A stretch of DNA of 24,000 bases, taken from the NCBI GenBank assembly GCA_030669205.1, contig DAOVEB010000002.1:1-24000 (forward strand), read 5' to 3'. This document shows positions 3,756-23,768 of the stretch, piece after piece. Position 1 is the first letter of the stretch; every line of letters starts with the position of its first letter. The translations under genes were made by a program, and so were the position numbers. The notes beneath the pieces are model-generated. The model was not told the origin of the DNA and made no database searches. It was given only the letters and a program-made list of their open reading frames with translations. This DNA is from Candidatus Parvarchaeota archaeon. Lineage in GTDB: Archaea > Nanobdellota > Nanobdellia > JAFCGN01 > DAOVEB01.

Positions 3756-4046
3756 CTACTTCTTCTTCGGACTTTCCTTTTCCAACGTAATAGTCATTGT
3801 TGAGACGTTCAGCTTGTCTCCTCTTTCCCCTTGGAGTTCCTCTGTTCCAGTTGTTATGTTGTCAATTTTCAAGTCACTCATGAACTTGTTCCTGACTATC
3901 TCAGCCACGTCAACGGCTCTCGAAATAGCCCTTCCCCTCGCCTTTATATATACCTTCTTGGCTCCGTTGTGGAACTGCGTTATCACAGCGAGTACATAGT
4001 TCATTGGTGGTTTGCTGCCAACAAATACGGTGTTATCATCTGCCAT
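3756..4046 (-). CDS. albA: Alba DNA/RNA-binding chromatin protein.
   Basis: [21 protein letters not shown]...[24 protein letters not shown] is a near-canonical Alba signature. A GAGGTGA Shine-Dalgarno site lies 6 nt upstream. Confidence 0.92.
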
Positions 4047-4100: not shown

Positions 4101-4286
4101 CTATCCATTTTCAACTGTTATGGCCTCCTCTGGGCACTGGACCTCGCAGGCCTTGCATCCGATGCACTCTCCCGGCTTCTTCACAACAACTTCCTTGTTG
4201 TCCTTGCCGAAGACATCCATCGGGCAGATGTTTATGCAGGTGCCGCAGTTCGTGCACTTCTTCTTGTCTATAACTGGTCTTGGCAT
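4101..4286 (-). CDS. Small 2x[4Fe-4S] ferredoxin (61 aa).
   Basis: Two CxxCxxCxxxCP motifs (CTNCGTCINICP and CIGCKACEVQCP). The start is taken at the internal ATG (MPRPVIDKKK). The longer track ORF overlaps the upstream gene, and a TATA box sits 24 nt before this ATG. Confidence 0.85.
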   Translation of the reverse strand: MPRPVIDKKKCTNCGTCINICPMDVFGKDNKEVVVKKPGECIGCKACEVQCPEEAITVENG

Positions 4287-4310
4287 AACAGGAATGGCGA
4301 GGTCTAAATG

Positions 4311-7300: not shown

Positions 7301-7569
7301 CAGTACTGTCCGTTGTTGCAGATAGCAGGGCCGACCAGAGGACAGCCCCAATTTACGCAGAGGGATGTGCCAGAACAACTTAACTCACAAGTGTCACAGG
7401 AGGATGCAGCGGATGGACAATAATTACAGCTGCCACTTCCTCCACCTCCACCACCTCCGCCGCCCGTATTTGGGCCGGTCTCAGCCCCCATCCCTGTCTC
7501 GAACAAGAGAGGAAACAGTAATATGAAAGTAAGTAGGGCTGTTGCAACCAACACTATGTATCTTCTCAT
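4321..7569 (-). CDS. Secreted giant cysteine-rich protein (1082 aa): signal peptide, Gly9 linker, about 600 aa of dense Cys arrays including one MopE-type motif, then a Cys-poor beta-rich region and a Cys-rich C-terminus.
   Basis: N-terminus is [30 protein letters not shown] followed by [12 protein letters not shown] (7438-7464). By hand count there are 23 Cys in the first roughly 118 residues after the linker. Contains [22 protein letters not shown] (6478-6543). ATGA overlap with the upstream gene at 7566-7569. Confidence 0.85.
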
Positions 7570-8459
7570 CCGTACATCAACTCACATTGAGATACAAATT
7601 CCCCATTACGAAAGATTGTCTGGTTGAAGATAAAAAACGTGTCTGTGATGCACTGATATATCTCCAAGGTCATGTCACCGAGTCCTCCACTCCGGTTTAC
7701 GGTTTCCACAGTATAATAGCATCTGACACCATCAAACTCCGCCTCGCCGAGCACTTCCCTTGAAAAACTTTGGTCCCAGTCAACTGAGTAAGTTCCGTTG
7801 CTCACGTGCAACACACCCTCGTAGTCCCATTTCTTGCCAACGTTAAATGGCGTATCATAAGAGAGTAACGGTGGGTCATACATATAGTTGTATTGGTAGT
7901 CTTCAAAGGAATAGACATAAAGGTCACCGTCAACAACGGAGATGTTGAAGTTCTCATAGTTTGTATGTCCTGTTCCTGAGTTTTGGAAGACATAGTGGCC
8001 ATCAACGCGCTCCATATTCACGCTTTCGGTCTTGTTCAAACCCTTGCTGTCCATACACATGTACCACCATGTATGGGTGACGTCCTTCCACATATCGGCC
8101 TGTATGACCTCGTACAGGGGTATACTCCAAGTGTCGTTTGGCACCGAGCCAAACTCGACTTCCAGACCGTCTTTGAATCCATCCCCATCTGTGTCATTTG
8201 AAAGAGGGTCCGTGCCGTAGGTTATCTCTATCCCATCAACTATTCCATCGTTGTCCGTGTCCTGTGCAAGTGGGTCTGTTCCCAGAGAGAGTTCATCCAA
8301 ATCTGTGAGCCCGTCTCCGTCTGTGTCGGATAACAACATGGTTGTTCCGAGGATTATCTCCTGGTAGTTCGGGATTCCGTCACCATCCAAATCCAGCGCA
8401 GAGAAAACGGCTACCGCTACAAAAATTACCAGTACAGCGAAAAGTGCGACCTTTTTCAT
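7566..8459 (-). CDS. Secreted protein with thrombospondin type-3-like Ca-binding repeats (DxDxDGxxDxxE) and a C-terminal Cys-poor beta domain.
   Basis: Signal [28 protein letters not shown], then repeated GTDPLxxDTDxDG units (8160-8393). ATG 8459 is preferred because GGTGGA lies 7 nt upstream. The alternative ATG at 8474 directly abuts the upstream stop. Confidence 0.85.
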
Positions 8460-8474
8460 GTCATAGTCCACCAT

Positions 8475-11400
8475 CTATCCACCACCTGTTGTGAGCGTTG
8501 GCTCGAACTGGACATCAACCGGCGGGCAGTCCGCAGGGCAGGTGTAGCAGCGCTCGTTGTCTTGGCATATCCAGTCGCCGCAGGTTGTTGCAGCCAGCGA
8601 GCTCTGCCTCTCCTCCACGTATATCGGCACAGGCTGCCTTATGTAGGGGTTGACAATGATGTCAAATTGGACCTCCCAGGACATGGGCATCATGTACGGG
8701 TTGAAGTACCTTGTGTTCAGATGTTTGTAACTTCCACTGTCCACCATGCAGTTGATGACGTAGCCCTGCCTATCAAGGTTGAGCATGATGTCCTTCTCAT
8801 CCTTGTCCATGACGCAGGAGAAGTCGTTGTTGCTTATTCCACATGTGAAAGGTTCGACAAGCCGCGCCTCGCCACCCATTGAGTTCCTCAACGTTATATC
8901 CGGTGAGTCGATGTCAGCCTCCTCCTCAACGGTCGAGAATCTCAAGAGGTGAGAGCCGGTTCTCTGGATGCCAAGTGAGATTTCAAGTTCTCCGCGCTCC
9001 ATTCCAGTTCCGCAGGTGGTTCCAAAGACGTTCTCATAACCCTCCGAATAACCTTCGCAGTTGGAAGTGGTCCCTGAGTGGAGCCATGTCGATGCGTAGT
9101 ACTGCATCGAGCCGTTGTTGTTTATACCTGCAGATTCACACCTGTACCTATCTGGTGTGCAGAACGATATGGTTTCATAGTCCAGAATGTAGTCGTCGCT
9201 GGGTAACATGTCCAGGGAGTCAGGTAACTGGCTGTATATCTCCCTGTGGGATGTCCAGAGGTCAGAGAGGTACGCGTCTGAGACGACGGTGGGCCTGATG
9301 TCCAGGCTATAGCTGAACTTGGATGAGACATTGTAGAAGACACCGAACAAATTGGCCCAGACCGCTCCGTCGCCTGAAACCTGCCCGCTGTCGCCGTCAG
9401 TGCTGTAGCTTCCAGCAGACAAACCCGAGCTGTAGACTGTCAGGGGTGTTGCTGGATACGCAGACTGGAAGATAGTGTGTTCAACTGGTGGCTGGTTTGA
9501 GGGGTACGTATCCAAGAGGTGGAAGTTCTCGAACAGGGCAGGAATGTCCTTGTAGACGCATATCTCCCTCTCGACTGTCTGGTACCTTGAACCAGGCACT
9601 GATGGACACTCGCTTTGATCCAACAGATAGACTGAGCAGTCCACAAAGTACGGGGCAGACGAGTTATACCTGATGCTCATGCACTTCTTCAACGGCCCGT
9701 CCACCGTGAACTCCACCTCCTGGTTCTCAGACTCTGTGTCGTCCCACATGATGCCCTTTCCAACCCAGCCCGTGCCATTTGGGGAGGTGTCAGGCACCAC
9801 TGTCAGGTTGCTTATGCACGGCCCCCTATCCCAGCAGCTGAGGGAGTATGTCGCATTGACCAGAGTGTTCTCAATCACATATCTGCTGTTGTCCCCCAGC
9901 ATCGAACCCCATGACGTCTCATAGGAGATTTCAGGGAAGCCTGTGCCGTAGTAGACGTCCACAGACGTAGTTGAGGTGTCGGGTACTATCACTATCTTGC
10001 ACTGGGAGTCGCCTGATGAGAGAACCTGGTGCGGGATGGCTTCCAAGCCGTTGTAAACCACTATGCTCGCGCAGTCCGGTGCCAACACTGTTATCTCCCG
10101 CGGGATTCTCACGGATGAATGGACGTTGCAGGTGTCCCTTCCGACAAATGTTCCAGTTGAGACCGTATCAACAATAATGATTGGGTCGTTGGTTATGTAT
10201 GTTTTATCGGTTTCATTATCATAATAGACGTCCAAAACCGTGCCAAGTATCAGTGGATTCAGATTCCTATCTGTATTGACGTCTGGGTCCTCCGCATAAA
10301 ACTCAAGAAGGAACTGTTTGAAGTTGGGCGCGTCTGCGGTCTCTCCAAAGTTGTTCTCAAAGCTACCTCTCGCACCGAGGGTTACTTCACCACCTATAAC
10401 AGAATAAACTGTGTCATATTCGTTCAGGATTCCACAGCCAGGAGAATTTGCGCATTCATACTCTATAACCTTAAGATAACCATCGAACAGATTTCCCTCG
10501 TCCCTTATCTCAAGTATTGGTGAGACCGAAAGACTAGTTGTCTCGCAGTCTGCGGTGCAGTTTATCTTCCACAACACGTCAATGTCCATTGCAGACGCGA
10601 AGTTGTCGCTGTCGTCGAAAACAAAGACGCTCGCGCTGTTCAGGTCTTCAAGTTCGTCTAGGGTGAAGGTCACGATGCCATCACCATTGGTCTCATCATC
10701 TTTTGTGTGCGACTCAGTCAGCACGCACTCGCAACCCTGGAGGATATGACCAGAACCACATGCTGGGGCCTCTGTAATCAAACAGTTACACGTGCCTGTT
10801 ACGAACTGGCCGCTGGGACATACGGGCTCGGAACTGTCTGAGCACACGCCGCCTGTGCAGGTCGCAGGAGGCTCGCAACGCGCGCTGGACGTTGTCCCAC
10901 ACTCGCACGTTCCGGTGTTGAGAGTGTATCCAGAGTCGCAGGTTGGTGGTGTTCCGGGTGCGGTGGAAGTGTAATGGAGCTTCACTGTGGCTCCGGAAAC
11001 CGGGACAGTGCCGCCTATCTTCCTTACGACCGCTCTTGTGACGTCGTAATCCTTGCCGATATTTATGTGAGTTATACCGTCTGCGTCCGTTATGTTTGAC
11101 GTCACGTTCACAATCCCTTGGCACGCGCATCCAGAGAGCTGGTAGCCAAAGGAGCAGTTGGGGGTCACAGGAAAACCATCACTTAGACACTGCATACCAC
11201 TGCTGTTCACACATCTCCCAATCTCATCTTCTACATAACAGACACCAGCGAATCCATCGGTATCACATTCACCGCAGGTCGCGTCTTCCGGTTCGGTCAA
11301 GCTGAACAGCATCAAGGTATAGTCGCTGAGTCTCTGGCCAGCAGGGCCCAAGAGTACGGCTTCGTACGGGTCTTCAGAGGCAGCGACCAGACCCATGTCC

Positions 11401-14400
11401 AAGGTACCGTCAACTTCAAACTGGTACAACGTTCCGTCAAAGTTCATCGTCACGTTGAACAGTGGCGGCGAATAGGCCTGCCTCTCGAGAAGTTTGAGTG
11501 TGAGCGGCTCCTCTGTCGTGTCCATCTCAAATATGTAGTCGCTTGAAAGGGTTGTAGACTCACACACTGGTTCAGAGTTGACATCTGGCTGGGAGGTCAT
11601 GAAACTCAAGACATCGGCTCCGTGCGCAGAGATGACTGCTGAGAAGGAATCGTTGAACGTTGAGGATATGGCCGTCTCCCCGCGGACCAGGTTGAGGTTC
11701 GCGTCCAATGTTATTCCATACGCCCTTGGCAGGAAATAAAATCCTGTCCAGGAGTTTATCTTGTGGAGCGAAGGGTAGAAGTTCTGCACAGCGTCCGTTG
11801 GCTGGGACTGGCCCGTGCTGGTCCACACCACGTCAAATGAATCAGAGTCAAGCCTGGACGCAAAGCAATAGAGACAATCCGTACACGTGAGCGTCTCCAC
11901 CTGCTCGCATACTAGCATTGAGCCGTCGCAGCCAAGAGCTGTGTATCCATCATCACATCCCTTGGAGCCAGACGGTATTATATCACACTGGACTGGTGAG
12001 GTGCCGCAGACACCGTCAAAGTCTTCGCAGTCTATCCTGTACGAAGCATTTGGTGAGAGGGTGCCTGTGAAGTCTATCTCCGAGTCGCTGGCTATGCTAC
12101 TGACGTATGGCACACAGTCGCACCCACTTTTGTAGTAACCTGCGGCACAGGAGATGGTGTAGGTCCTCTCGCACTCGCAGCTTGACGGGTTGAACGTGTA
12201 GCTGCTTGGGCACTGGCCGTCGCCTGATGGGGGGACCGCACTGAACGGAGCTATTGCAAAGGGTGTATAGAAGAAACCACCGCTTGGCACGCAGTTGCCA
12301 TAGCCGTCGCAGGTCTCGTCAGAGCCGCAGAGTGAGTAGGAAGTGTAGCAGCTGTCGCAGGTGCAGTCGCCGCTGCATCGGTCGCAGAGCGAGTACTGCT
12401 CAATCTCAGTAACAACACGCCAGGTGTGAACTTCAGTGAACTCCATGTCATATACCAAGACATTGTCAAAGTTGCCGTTGAAGTCGAAGCGCGTGAGGTA
12501 GTCGTATGGTTTGGCTGGAGCTGGGGGTTGTGTGAGTGAGGTTCCGATGTCATAGAAGTAGAGTTCGATTGTCCTGTCCCATTCGCTCGCCGGCATTGAG
12601 AGGGTGAAGGTTACGTTCTCTCCAGGCGTCAATATACCATCCCAGACCGGTTCTGTGTCAGATTCGAAAACCTTCTCCATGTTTGCTGTCCTAGCAACGG
12701 CATTGGTTTTCCCAGACCAGAACCCAAGGAGTTTTCCACCACCAAACGGAGCCAGTTGGGTAGTGCCATCCAACCACTCTATTGTACCACCAGTATTAGT
12801 TACACAAGAGATGACTCCACGGTCAACTATGCTACAAATGGCATCATTAGATACGCTCGTCAGGTCGGTAAACTTGCTGGCACCAACATCCATATCAATG
12901 TCCAGTCCTCCATGGGTCACCATAACAAATGGGTCGTCTATATCTTCAGTTCCCGTGTTCTCAACAACCACCTCAATCATCACCCTGTCACTGTCATTGT
13001 TGAAGCCGACGTTTCCGCCCCTGTCCGAACAATCCGAGGATGTGGTATACCTCGTGTTTGAGTTGCAGTCATGGTACTGCTTGTAATTCCCGGCAGAGTT
13101 GAACACTCCGACTTCGGTTATGCGGGCCTCGATGTAGCCGGTGGTTGACCAGCCGTATGGGTCACAATCGGCACCAGTAAGTAACCCTCTATTCAAATTG
13201 CTACAGTAACCATTTCTACAGTCCGCATAATGTTGCCCATCATAGTCCAAAGAAGCGTCGCAGGTGCAGATTTCCTCGTCGGCGTAGTAGACCTTGTCCG
13301 TCATGAACGGGACATTATATGGATTGCCGCATGTCTCGCCGTATATACAGATGTTTTTCATGTATTCTTCCAACTCTGCGATACAAATATCCGATGCATG
13401 ATATGGTTGATAATAGACTTGGTGGAGGTAGCTAGGGCTATAATACTCATCGGCCCTAGGACAGGAATGTTCCATTATATCCAAAAACTCATCATAAGAA
13501 GCCATTGGTGAGATTGTAGAACCATCATTGGCTTCACAGTACGGCTCACAATTTGGGCACATGCAGTACATTCCAGCAGCAATGGAATCCCACCTGCATC
13601 TTGTGTAGTCATAAGGCGGAATGTCACAAATGCTATCCAAGCAACCCGGTTGCACCAATGGAACAGGGAAATATATGTAATCATCATCGCTGCAGGAGTA
13701 TTCAAGACTGTAGTATGCACCTGGCAAGTCCTGATATGTAAACCTGCTAGGAAGTCTTGAAATATCGTGTGACCCGTCTCCTGTTGTCATGGAAGGTCCA
13801 CTTGGATTCATAGTAAGCTCAATCGGGTCTATATCACCAATATCAGCAGATACCGGCATCTGAGTACCTATCTTCATCTCCTGTGCGTTCTGGTCATAAT
13901 AGTCCATAATCCAGCCACTATGTGAAAAATAAAATAGTGTACCATCATGTTTCACAGCAACTGCCCCACAATCAAGGTTGTTGGTGCAAAAATCATACTG
14001 TTCATCTGTGCCGTCCTCATCTAAATCCAATTCAGCGTATCCCAAACAAACATCACTGGAAGTCGGCTTTGTGCCACTTGGTCCAGTCATGTCGCAGACA
14101 ACATTCTGGAAAGTAGCTAAATCAGGTCCAGATGCAATTGAATTTTTCTTCACAGGGAACTGGTAATCAAAGCTGTAATCCGCGCTGCTCCTGCCGCAGG
14201 ACCACGCAGTGTACGCAGGACTGTACTCACAACTGTAGCAAGTGCCACCGTCTGCACAGCCGGAATACAGGAAATCTACAGAATGATCGCCATCCACTAC
14301 CAAGAGGTTGTTAGGACTATATGCAGTAGAACCACAGTAATATGGTGTCACTGGTGTCTCTGGTGTAGTTTCAGTTGCTCTGCAATGCTCATCACACTGA

Positions 14401-14822
14401 GTAGTTGGGGACCCTCCCTGAAATACACATTGCCCATCCATACATCCAGCACCGCTGCAGAGCTCCTGATCCAAACACCAGCAGTTTACATAGATGCCTG
14501 TATAGGTTTGAGAAGCAGGGCATCCTGGTATACCCAAACCAGCACAACTTGGAACAAAGCTGTATTCGCATCCTTGATTAAGGTCTGTCCACTGGTCGGC
14601 TGTGGTGTATGTCACCTGGTCTATACATCCGCTAATTGGCAGACCGGTGCCTTCTCTGAAGCAGTAACCTGTACCTGATGGGCACAGATTTGTACACGCA
14701 TCACACTGAACATAGCTAAGGACCGAGACATATTCTCCGCAGTCAACCTGGGAGTATACCCCCTTAATTAACAGTAGACCTAAGGACAAGAGACATACTA
14801 TGAACAAAACTCTCTTGTTCAT
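8475..14822 (-). CDS. Secreted giant cysteine-rich protein (2115 aa), mosaic of Cys-knot-like arrays and Cys-poor beta-rich segments.
   Basis: One uninterrupted 6.3-kb frame. Sec signal MNKRVLFIVCLLSLGLLLIKGVYS/QVDC. GGAGGAG Shine-Dalgarno site 8 nt upstream. Recurrent C-x-[SAD]-G-x(4,5)-G-(T)-C-x-C modules. C-terminal CGDWICQDNERCYTCPADCPP module. Confidence 0.9.
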   Translation of the reverse strand: MNKRVLFIVCLLSLGLLLIKGVYSQVDCGEYVSVLSYVQCDACTNLCPSGTGYCFREGTGLPISGCIDQVTYTTADQWTDLNQGCEYSFVPSCAGLGIPGCPASQTYTGIYVNCWCLDQELCSGAGCMDGQCVFQGGSPTTQCDEHCRATETTPETPVTPYYCGSTAYSPNNLLVVDGDHSVDFLYSGCADGGTCYSCEYSPAYTAWSCGRSSADYSFDYQFPVKKNSIASGPDLATFQNVVCDMTGPSGTKPTSSDVCLGYAELDLDEDGTDEQYDFCTNNLDCGAVAVKHDGTLFYFSHSGWIMDYYDQNAQEMKIGTQMPVSADIGDIDPIELTMNPSGPSMTTGDGSHDISRLPSRFTYQDLPGAYYSLEYSCSDDDYIYFPVPLVQPGCLDSICDIPPYDYTRCRWDSIAAGMYCMCPNCEPYCEANDGSTISPMASYDEFLDIMEHSCPRADEYYSPSYLHQVYYQPYHASDICIAELEEYMKNICIYGETCGNPYNVPFMTDKVYYADEEICTCDASLDYDGQHYADCRNGYCSNLNRGLLTGADCDPYGWSTTGYIEARITEVGVFNSAGNYKQYHDCNSNTRYTTSSDCSDRGGNVGFNNDSDRVMIEVVVENTGTEDIDDPFVMVTHGGLDIDMDVGASKFTDLTSVSNDAICSIVDRGVISCVTNTGGTIEWLDGTTQLAPFGGGKLLGFWSGKTNAVARTANMEKVFESDTEPVWDGILTPGENVTFTLSMPASEWDRTIELYFYDIGTSLTQPPAPAKPYDYLTRFDFNGNFDNVLVYDMEFTEVHTWRVVTEIEQYSLCDRCSGDCTCDSCYTSYSLCGSDETCDGYGNCVPSGGFFYTPFAIAPFSAVPPSGDGQCPSSYTFNPSSCECERTYTISCAAGYYKSGCDCVPYVSSIASDSEIDFTGTLSPNASYRIDCEDFDGVCGTSPVQCDIIPSGSKGCDDGYTALGCDGSMLVCEQVETLTCTDCLYCFASRLDSDSFDVVWTSTGQSQPTDAVQNFYPSLHKINSWTGFYFLPRAYGITLDANLNLVRGETAISSTFNDSFSAVISAHGADVLSFMTSQPDVNSEPVCESTTLSSDYIFEMDTTEEPLTLKLLERQAYSPPLFNVTMNFDGTLYQFEVDGTLDMGLVAASEDPYEAVLLGPAGQRLSDYTLMLFSLTEPEDATCGECDTDGFAGVCYVEDEIGRCVNSSGMQCLSDGFPVTPNCSFGYQLSGCACQGIVNVTSNITDADGITHINIGKDYDVTRAVVRKIGGTVPVSGATVKLHYTSTAPGTPPTCDSGYTLNTGTCECGTTSSARCEPPATCTGGVCSDSSEPVCPSGQFVTGTCNCLITEAPACGSGHILQGCECVLTESHTKDDETNGDGIVTFTLDELEDLNSASVFVFDDSDNFASAMDIDVLWKINCTADCETTSLSVSPILEIRDEGNLFDGYLKVIEYECANSPGCGILNEYDTVYSVIGGEVTLGARGSFENNFGETADAPNFKQFLLEFYAEDPDVNTDRNLNPLILGTVLDVYYDNETDKTYITNDPIIIVDTVSTGTFVGRDTCNVHSSVRIPREITVLAPDCASIVVYNGLEAIPHQVLSSGDSQCKIVIVPDTSTTSVDVYYGTGFPEISYETSWGSMLGDNSRYVIENTLVNATYSLSCWDRGPCISNLTVVPDTSPNGTGWVGKGIMWDDTESENQEVEFTVDGPLKKCMSIRYNSSAPYFVDCSVYLLDQSECPSVPGSRYQTVEREICVYKDIPALFENFHLLDTYPSNQPPVEHTIFQSAYPATPLTVYSSGLSAGSYSTDGDSGQVSGDGAVWANLFGVFYNVSSKFSYSLDIRPTVVSDAYLSDLWTSHREIYSQLPDSLDMLPSDDYILDYETISFCTPDRYRCESAGINNNGSMQYYASTWLHSGTTSNCEGYSEGYENVFGTTCGTGMERGELEISLGIQRTGSHLLRFSTVEEEADIDSPDITLRNSMGGEARLVEPFTCGISNNDFSCVMDKDEKDIMLNLDRQGYVINCMVDSGSYKHLNTRYFNPYMMPMSWEVQFDIIVNPYIRQPVPIYVEERQSSLAATTCGDWICQDNERCYTCPADCPPVDVQFEPTLTTGGG

Positions 14823-14883: not shown

Positions 14884-17697
14884 TCATGGTATCTCCTCCA
14901 TCTTGCCGTATGGTCCGTAGGCAGGCGCGCATTCCTCCTTAACGATGATATCCCTGGTTTTGAGGTTTTCAGATTCGTCATAGTAGTAGCACTCGTAGGT
15001 CTGCAGAGTGTCTGGCTGGTACTTCACACATATGCCAGGTGTGATGAGCCTGCAGCAGGGCGAAATTATCCTGCCGTTGATGTCCCTGATAGTCTCGTCA
15101 TGGGTTGGCAGGCAGCAGAAGTTGTTCGCGTTGCACACCATCTGTATGTCGTTGACGCCTATCCTCACAACATTGCAGTCGCATGCCTCGTCATCGGTTC
15201 CAGACAGGCATATCGAACCTATTTCATTCAGGTTTTTACATATCTCGCAACTGTACGGAGACGTGACCTCAAAGGTGCTGTTCTCTGCAAAGAGGAGCTG
15301 TATTGGGAGGCCAGCAGCCTGCGCCCTACCTGTCGGGTTAAAGGAGTAGTCGGCCGAATATGTGAGCTGTCGCGACTCGCCTGTGCAGTGGTCGGTCACG
15401 TTGACGTACAGGCTCTTCAGTTTTATCCTCCACGGATAGCCTGTGAGCGCCTCCAGTTTCGCTGGTGAGACCTCCTCGAACTCGCGGAAGAATTCTGCCC
15501 TCAGCGCAGCGTCGAACATGTTCTCGCACTCCTCATTCGGACAGAACGCGCAGTTGAAGACCTCGACGTCGGTCAGGTTGTACTTTGCGCACTCCATGTC
15601 GTCGTATGTGTAGTCCGTGCCTTCCAAGCCCATGTTCCAGATGAGCCTCGTGAGCCAGTCCTGCTTCGGGAGTATGAGGTCTTCGGTTGCGAAGCACTCG
15701 CAATCAGCCTCTCTCACGTCAACTTTGCTCTGGTCAACGGTCCTCAGATTGCAAGCCAGGTCCTTCTTGCAGTAGTAACCTGCTGGATACGTTGTGCTGT
15801 CAATGGTTCTCTCCTCAAAGTGCTCCATGCTGTAACCACTTGGGCAAGTGGCAGTTGGATGGCAGGTGCAGCCATCTGAAACCCCTGTGCAGGAGTTCAG
15901 CTCGCACTGGCAAGTGCCTGAAACTAGGGTCCCAGACGCGCAGTTTGCGTCAGTGGGTGTATAACATGTTATGACATTGCCATCGCACCTCGGAACCTTT
16001 CCACCTGTGCAGAAATCATAGTACAACACATCAATACCATCCAAACATGTCGGAAAACTTGAAATACAGATGTAGTTATAAGTTCCAGGACAGCCACCGA
16101 AGACGTAGGAGTAACTTTCTCTGTAACATTTGCCAGAGTCACATGTTATTCCTAGGCAGGTCGCATCTGTATAGCTGCAACTGTCATAACCTTCAGTCCC
16201 ACAGTAGTACTCCCCATCGCTGTACACGATGTTTTCCGGCTCGCAGTCACTGGGGTCACGCACGCACTTCCCTGAATCACACCGGTCCCCGGAAGAGCAG
16301 GCAGAACCGAGCGTCTCTCCTTCTTTGACGAATACCTGGAGCGTCTTCATGGTGACCGCGTCAAGTATGTAGTCAATCCTGTGTTCAAGCTCGTACTCCT
16401 GCCACCCAATATAGTCTGCGTACTTCCCGGCATACACGCCACTGACATAGTCCTTTGAATAGGAATACAGGTCTGGGAAACCTCCCTTGTAGCCGACCAT
16501 CGAGAGAAGTGAGAGGTAATTGGTGAGGTCGAACCTGCCTGCTGTGATGTTCATGCAGAGCCTCTCCCCCTCGCCCGGTATGAAGGTATACCCTATTTCG
16601 CCTTTGTCCACGTTGATTTCTCCAATTCTGGTGTCAACAAAGTCGAACTTGTCCCTTCTGATGTCATAGTATATCCAGTCCTTGCCGAGCTCCATGACCT
16701 TCCTCACAGCAGGCTCGAGGTAGACGGACCTTCCGGTCAAACTGCCGTACGGGTCGATGAAGACGTGGTACCTTGCTGTGCCAATCTGAATCTCGTCACC
16801 CGAACCCACAGAAGAATCCCTTATGGAAGGTGCCACATCATAGCAGTACTCGTTCGTCTGACCTATGTCAAAGGTATAAGTGGTGTCACCCTCTCCCTTG
16901 TATGAGTAGACCCCAAGATACTTGCCGCCGGCAGCCATGCATCCGGTGAAGTTGTAGCCTGAAACGTCAAACTCGTCAGTTAATGTGAGCTTTGTCCTGT
17001 TCATCGACCTGAGCTCGAGCTGGATGTTTTCTATTGTAACAGTTTCGCCGAGCGCGGATGAGACCATCTCGAGGTTCGGGTCATCGGTCGGGTCGAACTC
17101 AACTGTGCCGTTCAGATAGTAGTAGACGTCATAGGTATGCTTCAGGTACGGCCTCGAGAGCTCGGGGTCGGATATGTATTTGCTGCCGCCTGTCTCCTTG
17201 AAAACGAGATATGTCTCTGACTGCAGAGAGCCGGAAGGTGCGAGGGCGGATGCCCTTGAGAACGGGAAGTAATCGGCGAGGAGCGAGTCAACGGTCTCAA
17301 TCAAATCATTCTCATCAGGTATGCAGAGCTCACCACGGTTCTTCCAGTAACGGACAACGGTTTCGTCGTCAACTGTGGCGAAGAAGTCCGGAACTGGCAG
17401 GAACGGGAGAAAGTCGGCAACATCGATGTAGCGATAGCTTTCGGGAATCAAACACGTGTCCGGGTCCCCACCACCCACAAGACCGGTGAAAAGTATCGCC
17501 CTGTCAAGGGCATAGCGCCTCTCCTGGTCAAAGAGCAGCCTTGCTGATTCGCCGGATGAGATTGTTGTCACGAGCCTGCCCCTTATGTTGGTTGAGCCGC
17601 CGATTGTGGCTGTATAGGAGAATGTGTTCATCAGGGCCCAGAAGGTAGCAACCGCCATCCCGAGTATTATTATGAGGTTTGTCTGTGCACGCTTCAC
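14884..17697 (-). CDS. Giant protein (937 aa) with a pilin-like (class III signal-like) N-terminus and Cys-rich central and C-terminal regions.
   Basis: GTG start at 17697 immediately after the TAG of the upstream gene. The N-terminus (V/M)KRAQTNLIIILGMAVATFWAL resembles the 129-aa pilin N-terminus KAQGLPLNTIVLGALAVLV. A dense Cys block is encoded at 15694-16299. Confidence 0.8.
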   Translation of the reverse strand: MKRAQTNLIIILGMAVATFWALMNTFSYTATIGGSTNIRGRLVTTISSGESARLLFDQERRYALDRAILFTGLVGGGDPDTCLIPESYRYIDVADFLPFLPVPDFFATVDDETVVRYWKNRGELCIPDENDLIETVDSLLADYFPFSRASALAPSGSLQSETYLVFKETGGSKYISDPELSRPYLKHTYDVYYYLNGTVEFDPTDDPNLEMVSSALGETVTIENIQLELRSMNRTKLTLTDEFDVSGYNFTGCMAAGGKYLGVYSYKGEGDTTYTFDIGQTNEYCYDVAPSIRDSSVGSGDEIQIGTARYHVFIDPYGSLTGRSVYLEPAVRKVMELGKDWIYYDIRRDKFDFVDTRIGEINVDKGEIGYTFIPGEGERLCMNITAGRFDLTNYLSLLSMVGYKGGFPDLYSYSKDYVSGVYAGKYADYIGWQEYELEHRIDYILDAVTMKTLQVFVKEGETLGSACSSGDRCDSGKCVRDPSDCEPENIVYSDGEYYCGTEGYDSCSYTDATCLGITCDSGKCYRESYSYVFGGCPGTYNYICISSFPTCLDGIDVLYYDFCTGGKVPRCDGNVITCYTPTDANCASGTLVSGTCQCELNSCTGVSDGCTCHPTATCPSGYSMEHFEERTIDSTTYPAGYYCKKDLACNLRTVDQSKVDVREADCECFATEDLILPKQDWLTRLIWNMGLEGTDYTYDDMECAKYNLTDVEVFNCAFCPNEECENMFDAALRAEFFREFEEVSPAKLEALTGYPWRIKLKSLYVNVTDHCTGESRQLTYSADYSFNPTGRAQAAGLPIQLLFAENSTFEVTSPYSCEICKNLNEIGSICLSGTDDEACDCNVVRIGVNDIQMVCNANNFCCLPTHDETIRDINGRIISPCCRLITPGICVKYQPDTLQTYECYYYDESENLKTRDIIVKEECAPAYGPYGKMEEIP

Positions 17698-18117
17698 CTA
17701 ATCACCCACACTCATATATTTGAACGGTCTCCCTCCTCTGAAAAGCTCATAGGGGTTGAACACCGAGATGGAGCAGTCGCCGGTTATGCTGCCCTCGTAT
17801 ATCTTCTTGTCAGAGTAGTACTGGAGCAAAAACAGCCTGTTTGGGTTCACGTACTCTATGGGAAGTCCCCCATAGTACTCCGAAAGGTCTGCGTAGGAGC
17901 CGATTTCCTGGAATCCCAGCTCATACCTTATGTAGTCGTTCCTGTACAGCGACGTGAGCATTGCGCTGCACTCCTCCATCTTCTCCGTGTTCACAACCTG
18001 GAGGAGTATGGTCTGCTTCGAAGACTCGGCAAAGAGACTATACGTTATTATAAATGCGGAGCTGGAAACTGCCAGAAGTATGATTTCGATGAACGTTATT
18101 GCCCCTTTTCTGTTCAT
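17698..18117 (-). CDS. Pilin-like protein (139 aa) with a class III signal peptide.
   Basis: MNRKG/AITFIEIILLAVSSSAFIITYSLF has basic residues, Gly, then a hydrophobic helix with Glu at +6, which is type IV pilin-like. TAATG overlap with the upstream gene. Confidence 0.75.
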   Translation of the reverse strand: MNRKGAITFIEIILLAVSSSAFIITYSLFAESSKQTILLQVVNTEKMEECSAMLTSLYRNDYIRYELGFQEIGSYADLSEYYGGLPIEYVNPNRLFLLQYYSDKKIYEGSITGDCSISVFNPYELFRGGRPFKYMSVGD

Positions 18118-18941
18118 TAGAATCCACCTCCCGTGAAAGATACAGAGGTGCTACCGCCGACCCCGTACTTTATTGTGGTTGTGAGTATGCCCACGCTGTC
18201 CCTGACGAAAGCCCCATCTTCATCAACGTATCTGATGACAACTGGCACGCTGGACGTATAGACCGAAGACTTGTCCTCAAGGTAGTCTATGAAATAACTG
18301 TCAAGTGTGTAGAGACCTTCGGGTTCCGGTGCCTTGAAGATGAGAGAGACATCCGCGCCCTGGCCAACAATTGCGAGAGCTATATTCAAAGCTATATCAG
18401 TTATTACGACGGCTGTTGAAATAGCACCTGACCAGAACTTTGTAATCTCCTTCGTTGTCTCGACAAAGAGATGAGCCTCTGTCATGTTCAGCTGAGGACT
18501 TGTGCTCAGACGGTGGTTTTTGAGTCTCCGGTTGTCCTCAAGGTCCCTCAACTCAAAGTCGATGACGTAGAGGCTGTAGGTGGTGTCGCCAACCGCGCTC
18601 CACGGAACCTCGGTTATATCGTTGAAGAAGTAACTCTGGATGCAGCCGAAGTATCTGTCCATGTTGAACTTCCTCTCATCCACCACTCCTGGGTAGACCC
18701 GCCTGATTGTACGGATTTTGTCGTTCGTCTCGTCGTAACTCACAGCGCCTGTCTCATAGGCGAAACAGTCGGCAGATGAATAAGCGCGAGTAGCGAGAGA
18801 ATTGGCGAAGCTCCTGGCATCGGCCCAAGTCGAGATGATGGTGATGTCGCTGAACTTGTAGCTTATAGACAGCACCATGAGTGAAAAGAGCATCATGGCT
18901 AGGGAAGCGTTCACGTATGCCATGATTTCTATCTCTGCCAT
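18117..18941 (-). CDS. Membrane-anchored or secreted protein (274 aa) with an N-terminal hydrophobic helix (non-canonical pilin-like); ends in TGGGF.
   Basis: N-terminus MAEIEIMAYVNASLAMMLFSLMVLSISYKF. The ATG lies 3 nt after the upstream TAG, with a GTGAGGT Shine-Dalgarno-like site upstream. No family recognised. Confidence 0.7.
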   Translation of the reverse strand: MAEIEIMAYVNASLAMMLFSLMVLSISYKFSDITIISTWADARSFANSLATRAYSSADCFAYETGAVSYDETNDKIRTIRRVYPGVVDERKFNMDRYFGCIQSYFFNDITEVPWSAVGDTTYSLYVIDFELRDLEDNRRLKNHRLSTSPQLNMTEAHLFVETTKEITKFWSGAISTAVVITDIALNIALAIVGQGADVSLIFKAPEPEGLYTLDSYFIDYLEDKSSVYTSSVPVVIRYVDEDGAFVRDSVGILTTTIKYGVGGSTSVSFTGGGF

Positions 18942-18944
18942 CCT

Positions 18945-21410
18945 CTAAACCTCACAATAACATACCCCTGGTAAAGGCAAGGTGTTAAAAATAGTATTGC
19001 ACCTAGCCCCTGAGAGTGGTTGCAGATTGCTCATATCTCCCGTGAACTCCAGTTCGAACGGGAAACACCTTCCATTACCATACCCTTCGTTGTTACATAT
19101 CTCAGTGCAACCACTGCATTCGATAAATTCGACAAGACACAAAGGAGGTGGGCAGTCAGTTGGACACTGCCAGCTGTCCTCTCCCTCATCACACACCCCA
19201 TCCCCACACTTATAACTCTCCGTGAGTATGTCGTTCCAGTTCATGAGCACAACTGGCTCGCAGCCATTGTTCATGATCTTGACTTCTGCACCGACCCTAT
19301 CGGCTTTGAGGGAGCATTTATAGTACATCGACTGTAAAAATCCTGGTTTCAGTTCGAGGGACCTCGACTCCAGGGGCATTTCAGGTATTATGGTGTTCAA
19401 CGTGTTGCTCAGCACATCCAGGGGTGATTCCATCCCGGCAAGGCTGAAGATGAAGTCAAGTCCGTCACCGAAGAAAGGTATGTCCACTGTCACAGATGGA
19501 AGGAGGTGTGATGTATGCTTGAACCAGTAGGTGTTGCCGCTCTCCCTGAGCTCCCATAAACTCGGATTAATGTCATAGCCGGTGGCTATAAGCATCTGCT
19601 CCAGCAAATTGGGTTCGACTATCTGACCGTCCTTCAGGGTGTAATCTATGGTGAGATTTTCAAATTGGACATCGACACTGCAACCGATGTCGGCAAAGTC
19701 ATAGCAGAAGAGTTTGAAGTTGCCTTGCTCCTCACCCTCCTCGTTCCTTGCGAAGTGGTTCTCGCACAGCATGCCGTTTTCATAGGAAAAGAACCTCGCA
19801 GGTGTGACGTAAACGTCAAAGGTCTGGTCGCTGCCCTTGCACGCCTTCTTCACATAATCCGCTATCTCCCCAACTCCAATTGGATAATAGCTGTCTCCAT
19901 CGCCGCACAGGGTGTCAAAGGTCTCCTTGTTCTTTGAGAGGACAATTTTCCCATCCGACATCTCCAGCGAAGGCGTCTCGTAATTGCCTCCAAAATAGGA
20001 GAGCTGGTTGCGCAGGAAGCACATGTCCTCCCCATTGACACCATAGCTCTTTACAGCCTTTATCTCGTCCTCGTCAGTGGTGAAGTCGATGGTCACAGCA
20101 CCATATTTGCCGGCGTAGAAGTCGTAGAAGCTGTCCGCGCTGTCCAGGTCAACTTGGAACAATATTTGGTTGCCTGTAAGAAAGTCAACCAGTTCCCACA
20201 GCGGGTCATCTGTCCTGCACGACCTGTAAGCTGCGTAGCCGGTTGCAGTCGTCTGTGCCCAGAGAGGCAGGTCCCTGTAGTACCTCAACTTCGAGGCCCA
20301 GTCAGGCATGGACCTAAAGGGTGTGGCTGCCATCCACTTCACTGGTTTGAACCTGCGAACCCCGTCAGAACCAACATAGGTGTACTCTATATAGCTGTTG
20401 TACTTCCTCAGGTCCTCGGCCTTCACGTGGTTCAGCCAGTCGTCCATATCGAGGTCACCGGTGTGGGTCAGGAAGTAATGGTTCATCCCGTTCTCCATAA
20501 CATCCAGTCTGTCTTCGGCTCTTTTTAGATGGCTATATGATGTAGCATATACCCCCCTGCCGGCACCGGGAACACCGTCTATCATGTCCTTAGTGTGTCT
20601 TGCCATAGCTCCGTTAGGGTCTGCTATTATGTCATCCATTATCGATTTGGCATAGTCATCCGCATCATCGTAGTGATTCTTTAGGAACTTCGAATTATCG
20701 AAGGTAGTATCCCCTCTTCTTATTGCGTCCGCGATAGCACCCTGTGCCTCGTGTCTTGGCCTGCCCACTGCATTCATCGAGACAATATCATCGACCTCCA
20801 TACCTCTCACCATGCCGAGCCTGCTCTTCACATTGGTAACCCAGTCGCTCTTCCTGGCCTTTATATCATCTATCCAGTCCCTCAGCTTACTAAGTCTGCT
20901 CTTCGCCTTTTTTTCTATCAACTCCTCTGTCGCCTCTTGCATCCCTTCGGTAACCATATCTCTTGCCTTATCACCTGCCGTATCCTTAACCTCATTTAAC
21001 AGCGCTTTCTTCGCCTTGCCCGCCACCGCCTTCAAGGTTCCGAAGCTCATGTAGATGCACGCGGTCCTCGGGGTGTAGAGCATGCGCTCGTCCTTTGTAA
21101 AGGTCACAGCAGCGCTGACGTCGTCTATCTCCAGCCCCCCCTCGCACACGAACTTTCCGAGCCTCTGGCTCCAAGAGCATGCATGGGGCCCGCGGTACTC
21201 GACATACGCGTCCTCCGGCAGCGAGTAGAGCAGTGATGTCAAGGCTTCAAGCTCGTTTGTGAAGTGTATTATAGGCATGTTCCTCGCTGTGTAGAAGACG
21301 CCTGTCGTGTTCGCATAGTTTATGGACAGGACGAGAAACGCTCCTGAGAGGAGAAGCGTTCCAATCGTTATGGTGATATATGCCTTCCTGGACAGAACCG
21401 GTCTGGACAT
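18945..21410 (-). CDS. Giant mosaic protein (821 aa): pilin-like N-terminus, 279-aa Cys-free highly charged segment, beta-rich middle, C-terminal CGDGVCDEGEDSWQCPTDCPPP module plus a small Cys-knot-like tail.
   Basis: N-terminus MSRPVLSRKA/YITITIGTLLLSGAFLVL, compared with the mini-pilin MRA/VSLTIGTVVALIIALLV. TATA box 23 nt upstream. The CGDG module is encoded at 19143-19208. Confidence 0.8.
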   Translation of the reverse strand: MSRPVLSRKAYITITIGTLLLSGAFLVLSINYANTTGVFYTARNMPIIHFTNELEALTSLLYSLPEDAYVEYRGPHACSWSQRLGKFVCEGGLEIDDVSAAVTFTKDERMLYTPRTACIYMSFGTLKAVAGKAKKALLNEVKDTAGDKARDMVTEGMQEATEELIEKKAKSRLSKLRDWIDDIKARKSDWVTNVKSRLGMVRGMEVDDIVSMNAVGRPRHEAQGAIADAIRRGDTTFDNSKFLKNHYDDADDYAKSIMDDIIADPNGAMARHTKDMIDGVPGAGRGVYATSYSHLKRAEDRLDVMENGMNHYFLTHTGDLDMDDWLNHVKAEDLRKYNSYIEYTYVGSDGVRRFKPVKWMAATPFRSMPDWASKLRYYRDLPLWAQTTATGYAAYRSCRTDDPLWELVDFLTGNQILFQVDLDSADSFYDFYAGKYGAVTIDFTTDEDEIKAVKSYGVNGEDMCFLRNQLSYFGGNYETPSLEMSDGKIVLSKNKETFDTLCGDGDSYYPIGVGEIADYVKKACKGSDQTFDVYVTPARFFSYENGMLCENHFARNEEGEEQGNFKLFCYDFADIGCSVDVQFENLTIDYTLKDGQIVEPNLLEQMLIATGYDINPSLWELRESGNTYWFKHTSHLLPSVTVDIPFFGDGLDFIFSLAGMESPLDVLSNTLNTIIPEMPLESRSLELKPGFLQSMYYKCSLKADRVGAEVKIMNNGCEPVVLMNWNDILTESYKCGDGVCDEGEDSWQCPTDCPPPLCLVEFIECSGCTEICNNEGYGNGRCFPFELEFTGDMSNLQPLSGARCNTIFNTLPLPGVCYCEV

Positions 21411-21433
21411 CGGTCTAATTTAATATTTACATC

Positions 21434-21441
21434 AATATAAA
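21434..21441 (-). promoter_or_regulatory. TATA box (TTTATATT) 23 nt upstream of the 821-aa gene ATG, in a 60-nt AT-rich spacer.
   Basis: Minus strand reads aaacTTTATATTgatgtaaatattaaattagaccgATG. Confidence 0.45.
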
Positions 21442-21454
21442 GTTTAATACAAAT

Positions 21455-21484
21455 ATTATATCTTGTAAAATTATATCTTGTAAA
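21455..21484 (-). repeat. Perfect 15-bp tandem direct repeat (attatatcttgtaaa x2) spanning the stop codon of the 219-aa gene.
   Basis: Read directly; units are 21455-21469 and 21470-21484. Confidence 0.9.
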
Positions 21485-22130
21485 TCGCCAGAAACGGTTC
21501 CAGAGGACCGCCTGTGTCCACCTTTTCAAAGCTCATGCCGCTTATCTCTATATCGGCTCCTTTTGCATAGATGCCGTCCAGCACCTCGTAACCAGGGTCC
21601 ACGTCAACCGCAACAAAGAAGCACTCCACAGGCACACCTATGCAGCACATCGAACCATCCCCAATCTCATAGAGGTCAGTGTTGGCAAGGTCGTTGCAGG
21701 CATTTGACCTGTCAGTCTGGATGTCAGAAAGTGTTGTCATTGCATCTGATACGATATCGTAACCCGGGAAAGACGCTGGGGGCGCAGTCTTTCCCATGCA
21801 GAGGCAGAACCCCCCATCACAGTTCTCGTAGGAGCAGCTGCTCTCAGGTCTGAACTTGTTGTTTTCGTTTAAGGTCTCAAGTGTTGTATCACATGACTCA
21901 CTGCCATAGAGCTGTATTATGAAGTATGTCTGGTAGAGCATGGGTCCAGCCGAACTCCCAGGCTCACTGCTGCAGGCTGTAGACATAGCTCCCCTGCTCG
22001 ACACAAACTTGTCGTATTCGGTGTTGGTGCTGGTAAAGGAGTTGATACAAGTGAAGACAAACATTATGACTATTACGCTGAAGATTATCTGGTACATCGG
22101 GCCAAAAAACGGGATTAGCCCTTTCCTCAT
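21471..22130 (-). CDS. Pilin-like Cys-containing protein (219 aa) with a class III-like signal.
   Basis: N-terminus MRKG/LIPFFGPMYQIIFSVIVIMFVF. ATGA overlap with the upstream gene. Shares the motif C-x-G-x-[FV]-C-L-C-[MI]-G with the 257-aa neighbour. Confidence 0.75.
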   Translation of the reverse strand: MRKGLIPFFGPMYQIIFSVIVIMFVFTCINSFTSTNTEYDKFVSSRGAMSTACSSEPGSSAGPMLYQTYFIIQLYGSESCDTTLETLNENNKFRPESSCSYENCDGGFCLCMGKTAPPASFPGYDIVSDAMTTLSDIQTDRSNACNDLANTDLYEIGDGSMCCIGVPVECFFVAVDVDPGYEVLDGIYAKGADIEISGMSFEKVDTGGPLEPFLAIYKI

Positions 22131-22900
22131 CTTATCACCTCAAAATCCGTCTTTATCACACCCTCTGTGGGATAACCGGTTGCGCCCGATGTTCCAATCT
22201 GGCTGTTCGGCCTGACCCAGAGGAAGAGGTTGTTCTCGCATCCACCAGAGCAGGAACCGTCGTTAACTGTTATGTACGTTCCTTCGCCGATCCTGCCGCA
22301 GTTTATGAGGGTTATGTTCGGACGTCTTTCCCAGGCTCCTGCAAAGAAGGCCGAGCAGAGGGTTGAAAGTGTTGCGGACGGGTCTGCGCTGAGCTTGTAG
22401 ATGACCTTCCTCCTAGCAGACACATTCTCCAGTGATGATTCCAAAATAGGTACCCATGAAGGTGCGGTGCCGGACCAGTTGAGGACGCATGTACGAGAGT
22501 CGCACCTCGGACTGCCATATGGGCTGGGCGAGCATATCTCCAGGTCTTCACAACCGACGTTGTTGAACGTGCCTATGCACAGACAGACGTTTCCAGGGCA
22601 TTCCGAACCCATCTGGCTACCCGGAAGCACGGCGCCGTTGCGGTAGAGCTCCTCTATGAAGGGGGTGCAACCCTGGTCAAAGCGCAGTTGTATGGCGAAC
22701 TGGTCGGGCGCGAGTCTGAACGGCTCAATTGAGGTGGTTCCCCTGTCAATTGCGAGTGCGAACTCTTCTGCAATCTCGTCTGCCCTCGCCTCAACCGAGG
22801 TGCCCAGGATATTGGAGAGGTTGGCAAGTATCGGTGGTATCACAATCATCAGACCAGCTAGCATCAAAAGACCAAATATGGCATAGACAAGATTCACCAC
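22127..22900 (-). CDS. Membrane-anchored Cys-containing protein (257 aa), paralog of the 219-aa protein.
   Basis: GTG start (22900 or 22897), with AGGTGGTGA Shine-Dalgarno-like sequence overlapping or upstream, so the exact start is uncertain. N-terminus VNLVYAIFGLLMLAGLMIVIPPILANLSN. Internal ECPGNVCLCIGTF compares with ENCDGGFCLCMGKT in the 219-aa protein. Confidence 0.7.
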   Translation of the reverse strand: MVNLVYAIFGLLMLAGLMIVIPPILANLSNILGTSVEARADEIAEEFALAIDRGTTSIEPFRLAPDQFAIQLRFDQGCTPFIEELYRNGAVLPGSQMGSECPGNVCLCIGTFNNVGCEDLEICSPSPYGSPRCDSRTCVLNWSGTAPSWVPILESSLENVSARRKVIYKLSADPSATLSTLCSAFFAGAWERRPNITLINCGRIGEGTYITVNDGSCSGGCENNLFLWVRPNSQIGTSGATGYPTEGVIKTDFEVIR

Positions 22901-23318: not shown

Positions 23319-23708
23319 TTAAATGGCTGTGCAGCAATATACATGGTTGGTTGCGTCGTCCGCGCATGACCCGCCTTTGATTGTTATTATTTCTCCACCT
23401 GAAAGTGAAAAGGCGCAACCGGTTGTTATGTAGTCGCCGCAGTCGGTTGTCGCAGTGTTGCTTGGGTCAGGGTCAGAGCAGAAATTGCTACCCCTCGCTG
23501 CTGCAACCGCTGTTGTCTCTGAAGAGTATATGTTGCTGAGTCCTGTGCAGTATGTCTGACAGTTGACGTACGCGTCAGGAGCAAGTCCGAAGATGCTTCT
23601 GAACATGTTTCCTATTCCTGGGACGAAAACTGCTGCCAAGATTACTAGTACTAAAACTGCTAATGCTCCCAAAACAATTGTGTTTAATGGTAAACCTTGT
23701 GCTTTCAT
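23319..23708 (-). CDS. Candidate major pilin (129 aa): class III signal peptide, hydrophobic N-helix, small 8-Cys globular domain.
   Basis: N-terminus MKAQG/LPLNTIVLGALAVLVLVILAAVFVPG. It has its own consensus TATA box and its own terminator. The C-terminal domain has 8 Cys, so up to 4 disulfides are possible. Confidence 0.8.
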   Translation of the reverse strand: MKAQGLPLNTIVLGALAVLVLVILAAVFVPGIGNMFRSIFGLAPDAYVNCQTYCTGLSNIYSSETTAVAAARGSNFCSDPDPSNTATTDCGDYITTGCAFSLSGGEIITIKGGSCADDATNHVYCCTAI

Positions 23709-23733
23709 AATAATATCAGATGGTTGGGGTTGT

Positions 23734-23741
23734 ATATAAAT
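23734..23741 (-). promoter_or_regulatory. Consensus TATA box (TTTATATA) 25 nt upstream of the pilin ATG; leaderless mRNA.
   Basis: Minus strand reads ccttaaaTTTATATAcaaccccaaccatctgatattattATG. Confidence 0.6.
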
Positions 23742-23768
23742 TTAAGGTAAAAAACGGGCCAAAAGCCT

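Follow-up and report, generated by a model that had tools for sequence, protein, structure and literature searches.

A candidate large pilin-like surface protein at the head of a conserved five-gene cassette in DPANN archaea

The 24-kb window analysed here (the whole stretch of DNA, positions 1 to 24,000 of contig DAOVEB010000002.1) carries on its minus strand a gene, here called A (18945..21410), that encodes a protein of 821 amino acids (aa). A is a genuine DPANN gene that heads a five-gene cassette (A to E) and has a predicted promoter of its own; on balance, it probably encodes a large minor-pilin-like surface protein, a subunit of a pilus-tip or adhesion complex. The reality of the gene, its family, the synteny of the locus, the conserved promoter motif, the domain layout and the pattern of variability are direct observations. 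The open reading frame (ORF) was confirmed, with an ATG start, and all the strings quoted from it in an earlier note on this DNA (the N-terminal MSRPVLSRKAYITITIGTLLLSGAFLVLSI, the motif CGDGVCDEGEDSWQCPTDCPPP and the tail CSGCTEICNNEGYGNGRC...CYCEV) were located in its translation. Every gene in the window lies on the minus strand. The low-coordinate end holds genes for L11, Spt5/NusG, FtsZ and an FKBP isomerase, plus Alba at 3756-4046, which identifies the stretch as an archaeal chromosome. The FtsZ sequence is 64-75% identical to that of metagenome-assembled genomes labelled Woesearchaeota, Nanoarchaeia, Nanoarchaeota or Nanobdellati, which assigns the host to the DPANN archaea (Woesearchaeota/Nanoarchaeia-like).

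Neither Pfam nor NCBIfam returned a match for the gene A protein or for any of 33 family members. Two close homologs were found among 5.8 billion proteins: P0002 (760 aa, 54% identity) and P0003 (469 aa, 56%). The 33-sequence profile, run in a word-indexed search, brought up the same 3 proteins and no others, a metagenome scan with a narrower alignment gave 3 loci, and a scan of GTDB genomes with the family A pattern found no relative. A profile search over all 1.84 billion cluster representatives identified 32 family A proteins with E <= 0.001, of which 12 reached E <= 1e-30. They are mostly of 600-950 aa, with matches covering the N-terminal ~125 residues, the region ~380-720, or both. The genomes closest by FtsZ contain very divergent A counterparts in the same chromosomal position, upstream of alba-FKBP-ftsZ; one of these, a 600-aa ORF at locus L004 (hmmsearch E = 0.001), has a visibly similar head (..PDNVYVLYYGTPDCKWEQGIYYCQGEE..). 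Family A is fast-evolving and probably wider than sequence searches can show. Full-length orthologs colinear with A occur in independent samples, at loci L002 (760 aa), L083 (744), L091 (637), L087 (648), L084 (846) and L090 (954), and the order of domains is identical in all of them, in support of the earlier note's description of A as a modular protein.

The layout of the protein was derived from the alignment and from AlphaFold2 (AF2) modelling. A run with 3 sequences was useless (predicted local distance difference test, pLDDT, of 31), and the run on a 33-sequence alignment gave a usable model (mean pLDDT 66). Residues 1-30 (21321..21410), which have no acidic residues and are 53% hydrophobic, show a class-III-signal-like pattern (MSRPVLSRKA/YITITIGTLLLSGAFLVLSI, the slash marking the putative cleavage site). 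Across family A, a short basic stretch is followed by [KR][AGT] at positions -2/-1, by Q, Y, S or I at +1 and then by a helix of ~22 hydrophobic residues; RKA/Y, RG/I, RA/Q or RT/Q is found in most members. The remainder of the head (residues 31-125; 21036..21320) comprises the end of the long helix, a beta sheet and the invariant Cys78, Cys89 and Cys118. AF2 predicts a helix at 7-62 (56 residues) followed by strands at 67-121 with pLDDT 83-93, and this modelled arrangement of residues 1-125 corresponds to the secondary-structure pattern of a type IV pilin. The head as a whole is 81-86% identical to close orthologs. The pilin-like head recognised in the earlier note is thus supported by the N-terminal pattern of the family, by the predicted helix and beta sheet, and by the class-III-signal-like N-termini of neighbouring genes (see below). 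The earlier note had also linked A through the residues TIGT to a 51-aa protein of the locus; the 51-aa ORF does contain them (MRAVSLTIGTVVAL...), but TIGT alone carries no statistical weight. What the two proteins have in common is [KR]-A followed by a hydrophobic helix.

Downstream of the head, residues 126-395 (20226..21035) form a hypervariable charged insert, predicted to be helical as the earlier note had proposed. It contains 32% D/E/K/R and no Cys; AF2 models it as helices with low to medium confidence. Its identity to close orthologs falls to 35-38%, with indels, and its length and composition differ greatly across family A. Residues 396-732 (19215..20225) make up a conserved beta-rich domain that is 66-85% identical to close orthologs, is matched at E values down to 1e-83 in distant members, and is modelled with pLDDT mostly 85-97 (residues ~414-730). 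When the whole model was compared with PDB and BFVD by Foldseek, nothing matched at E <= 0.001, the beta-rich domain included. Eight Cys (78, 89, 118, 398, 464, 502, 549 and 569) are invariant in 21/21 full-length members, the last five lying in the beta-rich domain, a number in keeping with four disulfides in an extracellular protein. The helical insert is flanked by Cys118 and Cys398, which, we infer from their positions, would staple an insertion. From the alignments, the conserved core of A consists of head, variable insert and beta domain, and the segments beyond it (a CGDG motif and a Cys-rich tail, see below) are additions specific to the window's clade. The stalk-plus-tip design suggested in the earlier note stays conjectural; the helical region, the least conserved part, resembles an insertion set between two invariant cysteines more than a rigid stalk. 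As a separate observation, L084, L085, L090 and P0017-P0033 form a distant subfamily (~790-950 aa) with the same eight cysteines and the same operon, in which the charged helical insert is replaced by a poorly charged region rich in Ser, Thr, Ala, Asn and Gln.

Gene A is followed, directly and in all loci, by gene B (18117..18941; 274 aa, with an N-terminal hydrophobic helix), then by C (17698..18117; 139 aa), D (14884..17697; 937 aa, 49 Cys) and E (8475..14822), which encodes a giant of 2115 aa with a Sec-type signal peptide, 116 Cys and a CGDWIC...CPADC sequence near its C-terminus. The order A-B-C-D-E is found in the window and at L001, L083, L091, L084/L085, L090, L004, L006 and L087. Sizes range over 600-954 aa for A, 264-302 for B (362 in L006), 138-208 for C, 706-1162 for D and 784 to ~2115 for E; the E counterparts in L083 and L091 measure ~2100 aa. 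Every cassette begins with A. Upstream of it lie unrelated housekeeping genes in L084 (V-ATPase and HhH-GPD), in L087 (a cytoplasmic-looking 241-aa protein) and in L090 (CCA-adding enzyme and a LAGLIDADG protein), and the conserved operon can therefore be taken to start with A. The L084 cassette adjoins a V-type ATPase operon.

The N-termini of the other cassette proteins resemble that of A. C (MNRKG/AITFIE...) and D (MKRA/QTNLIIILG...) are pilin-like, with [KR][GA] before Q or A and a hydrophobic helix in 7/7 tabulated loci, always with [KR][GA]/Q in the case of D; the B orthologs of L083 and L087 begin with KKG/Q and RG/Q. Gln at +1 occurs in D at all loci, in C at several, in a 129-aa neighbour and in most distant A members, the target itself having Tyr. 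Gln at this position reportedly marks EppA-type pilin substrates. Neighbouring proteins of 47, 51, 58, 129, 139, 219 and 937 aa all start with [KR][GA] and a hydrophobic helix, and the same is seen in L083, L084, L090, L091 and L004. In the window, gene A is closely preceded by small pilin-like genes (47, 51, 58 and 129 aa); more generally, the window and L083 share further small pilin-like genes (47-133 aa) and two related genes of ~220-257 aa upstream. In the window the latter encode proteins of 219 aa (21471-22130, minus strand) and 257 aa (22127-22900, minus strand) that are paralogs (hhalign probability 85%, E = 7e-6); no other two pilin-like families of the locus proved related in the hhalign comparison.

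The spacer preceding gene A (21411..21470, 60 bp) has a G+C content of 17%, compared with ~51% for the window. It contains a putative B recognition element (BRE) and TATA box, AAACTTTATAT, at 21445-21435, with 23 nt separating the TATA box from the ATG of A. Archaeal TATA boxes are centred ~26-27 nt upstream of the transcription start. The position of the box therefore predicts a start at ~21410-21412 and a leaderless mRNA. The AAACTTTATA motif precedes the orthologs in L002 and L083 at 23 and 27 nt, and variants are found in L001 (AGATTTATATT) and L084 (AAACTATTAATATT). The sequence TTTATATW has only two copies on the minus strand of the 24-kb window, each ~31 nt upstream of a start codon. 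Gene A lacks a Shine-Dalgarno sequence, whereas B, C, D, E and a 302-aa gene further downstream have GGAGG/GGTGA-like sites directly upstream. A promoter of its own, as claimed for A in the earlier note, is thus supported by the retention of the BRE/TATA motif at nearly the same distance in divergent orthologous loci and by the missing Shine-Dalgarno sequence. The further claim that this is the only AT-rich, TATA-bearing spacer within the locus held in part: it is the most AT-rich, but the spacer at 23709-23768 (33% G+C, minus strand) is also promoter-like, with 24 nt between TTTATATA and the start codon of the gene for the 129-aa pilin-like protein and with a TTTATATW copy at 23740. A sigma-70 promoter and terminator scan was uninformative for an archaeon. 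Nearby, at 21455-21484 (minus strand), a 15-bp direct repeat, TTTACAAGATATAAT, is present in two perfect copies, the first holding the last codons and stop of the 219-aa gene and the second lying just upstream of the BRE/TATA of A. The repeat was not seen in L002; it could be a regulator-binding site or a slippage scar.

What these features would mean for function can be put as a sequence of steps. Transcription of the cassette A-E would start at its own BRE/TATA promoter and yield a leaderless mRNA. The short basic N-terminus (..RKA/Y..) may act as a class III signal peptide, cleaved after membrane insertion, probably by a prepilin peptidase encoded elsewhere, and the long hydrophobic N-terminal helix would bring A into a type-IV-filament-like assembly together with B, C and D. 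The four proteins may form a low-copy initiation or tip complex, exposing the beta-rich domain of A, its fast-evolving helical insert and the adhesin-like giant E on the cell exterior, where they would serve in attaching to a host cell or to a surface. The four invariant cysteine pairs and the lineage-specific Cys-rich tail would stabilise the extracellular parts. Signal cleavage, filament incorporation and a tip or adhesion role are thus the steps that we infer.

The main rival to this scheme, which we regard as possible if rather doubtful, holds that A is an uncleaved signal-anchor (type II) membrane protein, surface- or S-layer-associated, that has no role in a filament, the cassette specifying a membrane-seated envelope or adhesion complex. 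Several results weigh against a pilin, and all but the structural and profile-profile comparisons also speak for such an anchor. Compared with known class III cleavage sites, the Tyr at +1 is unusual, as is the Thr at -1 of some members, and P0009, P0013 and L004 have no basic residue. Sequence comparisons of the target, 33 family members and the small neighbouring ORFs with Pfam, NCBIfam and PDB gave no match to any pilin family, Class_IIIsignal included; PDB sequence searches with the full profile and with an N-terminal profile returned helical-repeat noise only and no pilin. A Foldseek search with the whole model likewise found no pilin (best E = 0.04, template modelling score < 0.1), and by profile-profile comparison (hhalign) family A is unrelated to the other pilin-like families of the locus. 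At 821 aa, A far exceeds the size of any archaeal pilin characterised to our knowledge. Finally, Pfam searches found no gene for a pilus ATPase, a TadC/FlaJ-like platform protein or a prepilin peptidase in the 24-kb window or in L001, L083, L084, L089, L090 and L091. Against the anchor stand the predicted helix, whose 56 residues connect the membrane segment to the globular head without a break, in the manner of pilins, the textbook [KR]G/Q N-termini of C and D in every locus, and the small pilin-like genes directly upstream. Moreover, archaeal pilin operons are often located apart from ATPase/TadC operons (PMC4858521), so that the missing linkage to ATPase and platform genes does not exclude a filament function. 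The minor-pilin-like reading of A is the one that we continue to favour.

The earlier note described a C-terminal module common to A and the 2115-aa giant. In a BLASTP comparison of the two proteins only CGDGVCDEGEDSWQCPTDCPP of A aligned, with CGDWICQDNERCYTCPADCPP of the giant (11/21 identical, pairwise E = 2e-4, giant residues ~2081-2101). This 21-aa motif has the form CGDGxC...CPxDC and corresponds to residues 733-755 of A (19146..19214), which are 64-74% identical to close orthologs. A regular expression for the motif class found 12 instances in the window and 85 fetched loci, mostly Woesearchaeota/Nanoarchaeia FtsZ neighbourhoods. Seven of the 12 (in L005, L006, L011, L019, L026 and L030) fall in proteins without detected similarity to the target, the other five being in the target, its L001 ortholog and three giant proteins. 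The giants of L083, L006 and L005 bear the motif, which in L083 constitutes the very last residues. This recurrence identifies a short Cys motif that is generic to the secreted proteins of the lineage, rather than a shared domain. The idea of a domain exchanged or shared between A and the giant was therefore rejected.

Beyond the motif, residues 756-821 (18948..19145) form a Cys-rich tail with 8 Cys in a CxxCxxxC...GxC...CxC arrangement, present only in the window and in L001 (48% identity). P0002 stops immediately behind the CGDG motif, and the distant members all end ahead of it. The Cys knot that the earlier note took for a tip is thus not conserved, being missing from a close ortholog and from all distant relatives. 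AF2 assigns residues 733-820 a pLDDT of ~30, and a search with the 93-aa tail found no homolog. We considered whether the tail might be a cysteine-stabilised alpha-beta (defensin/gamma-thionin-like) effector, in which case A would deliver a membrane-active or toxin-like knot to the host cell at the end of the pilus. The CxxxC...GxC...CxC pattern over residues 768-819 is kept in the L001 ortholog, and Gamma-thionin (residues 766-783) is the one hint that Pfam gave anywhere in A. That hint (PF00304) reaches 13.3 bits where the cutoff is 25.1 (E = 0.11), and the loop between GxC and CxC measures 34 residues. Defensin loops are much shorter. The low pLDDT, the failed homolog search and the restriction of the tail to the window and L001 also stand against it, and the same regular expression matches a 1082-aa protein with 9.5% Cys, presumably by chance. 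A defensin-like fold is unlikely, and a role of the tail as such an effector highly improbable. As an observation apart, the first mature residues of the giant (~26-54, DCGEYVSVLSYVQCDACTNLCPSGTGYCF) align weakly with the start of the tail of A (DCPPPLCLVEFIECSGCTEICNNEGYGNGRCF; pairwise E = 0.05); both have CxxCxxxC...GxCF, which is not kept in the L001 giant.

That the 821-aa ORF might be an assembly or fusion artefact, joining a pilin gene to unrelated downstream domains, could be suspected from the L001 ortholog, which is split into ORFs of 469 and 354 aa, but the split is explained by a frame-shifting tandem duplication, and the scenario, which the earlier note had raised against itself, is exceedingly improbable because the cassette order holds in at least 9 independent contigs and full-length orthologs with the same domain order exist at L002, L083, L091, L087, L084 and L090. 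The duplication (L001:3380-3491) is a perfect one of 56 bp (2.0 copies, 100% match). With a single copy left, the two ORFs share one frame, and their joint translation is colinear with the window protein from end to end. Either the duplication arose in the assembly or it is an inactivating mutation of very recent date.

The arrangement of the cassette invites comparison with known systems. Bacterial minor-pilin tip complexes include FimU-PilV-PilW-PilX with PilY1 in type IVa pili and GspH-I-J-K in the type II secretion system (Nguyen et al. 2015, as cited in PMC4858521). As in those systems, an operon of four unequal pilin-like proteins is followed here by a very large non-pilin with a Sec signal peptide, and the expected role would be in initiation, tip formation and adhesin display. 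A, like GspK among the bacterial subunits, would have a large helical insertion in its pilin scaffold. The bacterial complexes belong to another domain of life and another cell envelope, and searches of Pfam, NCBIfam, PDB and Foldseek gave no match to PilV/W/X, FimU, GspH-K or the PilY1 beta-propeller. Among archaea, type IV pilus loci of clade/system 1, DPANN included, encode at least 5 minor pilins and large PilY-like adhesins (PMC4858521; bioRxiv 10.64898/2026.04.22.720090); the Epd pili of Methanococcus maripaludis have minor pilins EpdA-C and large DUF2341/PilY-like adhesins (Makarova et al. 2016, PMC4858521; Sivabalasarma & Albers 2026, bioRxiv 10.64898/2026.04.22.720090). Shared with Epd and system 1 are the clustering of class-III-signal-like genes with genes for very large secreted adhesin-like proteins, the fast evolution of components that keep conserved cysteines, and the reported occurrence of system 1 in DPANN. 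Less clear-cut are Gln at +1, present in many of the proteins and replaced by Tyr in the target, and a LamG-type domain (Laminin_G_3), present on the L083 giant. There are also differences. No Epd or arCOG pilin family could be matched to the cassette proteins by sequence or profile; the locus contains no gene for an ATPase, a split platform protein or EppA; A, at 600-950 aa with its helical insert, is far larger than Epd minor pilins; and the window's 2115-aa giant has no Pfam match and no detectable LamG or DUF2341 domain. The likeness to bacterial minor-pilin/PilY1 loci and to archaeal system 1 loci would accordingly be one of operon logic, not of demonstrated homology. An ecological analogue is offered by the episymbiotic Saccharibacteria of the Candidate Phyla Radiation, whose type IV pili drive host binding (PMC11623550). 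There too the lineage is ultrasmall and host-dependent, pilins are proposed to recognise the host and the exposed parts are variable; those pili are bacterial, with canonical PilB/PilC/PilD, and the parallel is ecological only. One could go further and imagine A-E as a self-contained and so far undescribed DPANN host-attachment device, in which a tip or priming complex of four pilin-like proteins with a giant Cys-rich adhesin would be a convergent or very deeply homologous counterpart of minor-pilin/PilY1, the insert between Cys118 and Cys398 being a fast-evolving determinant of host specificity; we put this forward tentatively, as a conjecture with the odds against it.

Some other features of the locus deserve mention. 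The 129-aa pilin-like protein (23319-23708, minus strand; MKA/QGLPLNTIVLGAL..., 8 Cys) is kept in L083 (118 aa) and is a candidate major pilin of the locus. On the other side of the cassette, between the giant and the 1082-aa protein, a 302-aa protein (7566-8474, minus strand) has four TSP3_bac calcium-binding repeats (E = 1e-22). The 1082-aa protein itself (4321-7569, minus strand) is secreted, has 103 Cys (9.5%) and a run of nine Gly after the signal peptide, and has no family match; both genes are absent at the corresponding position in L004 and L006. A 600-bp gap between the surface-protein locus and the FKBP gene (minus strand) accommodates the 96-aa Alba-like gene (3756-4046), found at the same position in L004 and L006, and a small ferredoxin-like ORF of the 2x[4Fe-4S] type (~4101-4290; CxxCxxCxxxCP twice). 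Gly-rich C-termini of the T/G-G-G kind, which might serve in sorting or processing, are seen in B (..SFTGGGF), the giant (..TLTTGGG), P0032 (..FLGGG) and L004:681-2483 (..NWAGGT).

DPANN archaea are ultrasmall and mostly host-dependent, and how they recognise and hold their hosts is largely unknown. The A-E cassette is a concrete and testable candidate for that function: it is conserved and promoter-defined, it combines large pilin-like proteins with an adhesin-like giant, it has no curated-family annotation, and its first protein bears a hypervariable exposed insert. If A is merely a membrane anchor, the cassette is still a conserved, unannotated surface complex of the lineage. The best-supported description of A places it in the broad class of archaeal pilin-like surface proteins, as a rare member that lacks annotation, evolves fast and is unusual in its size and its insert, and as such it widens the range of sizes and architectures known among archaeal pilin-like proteins.

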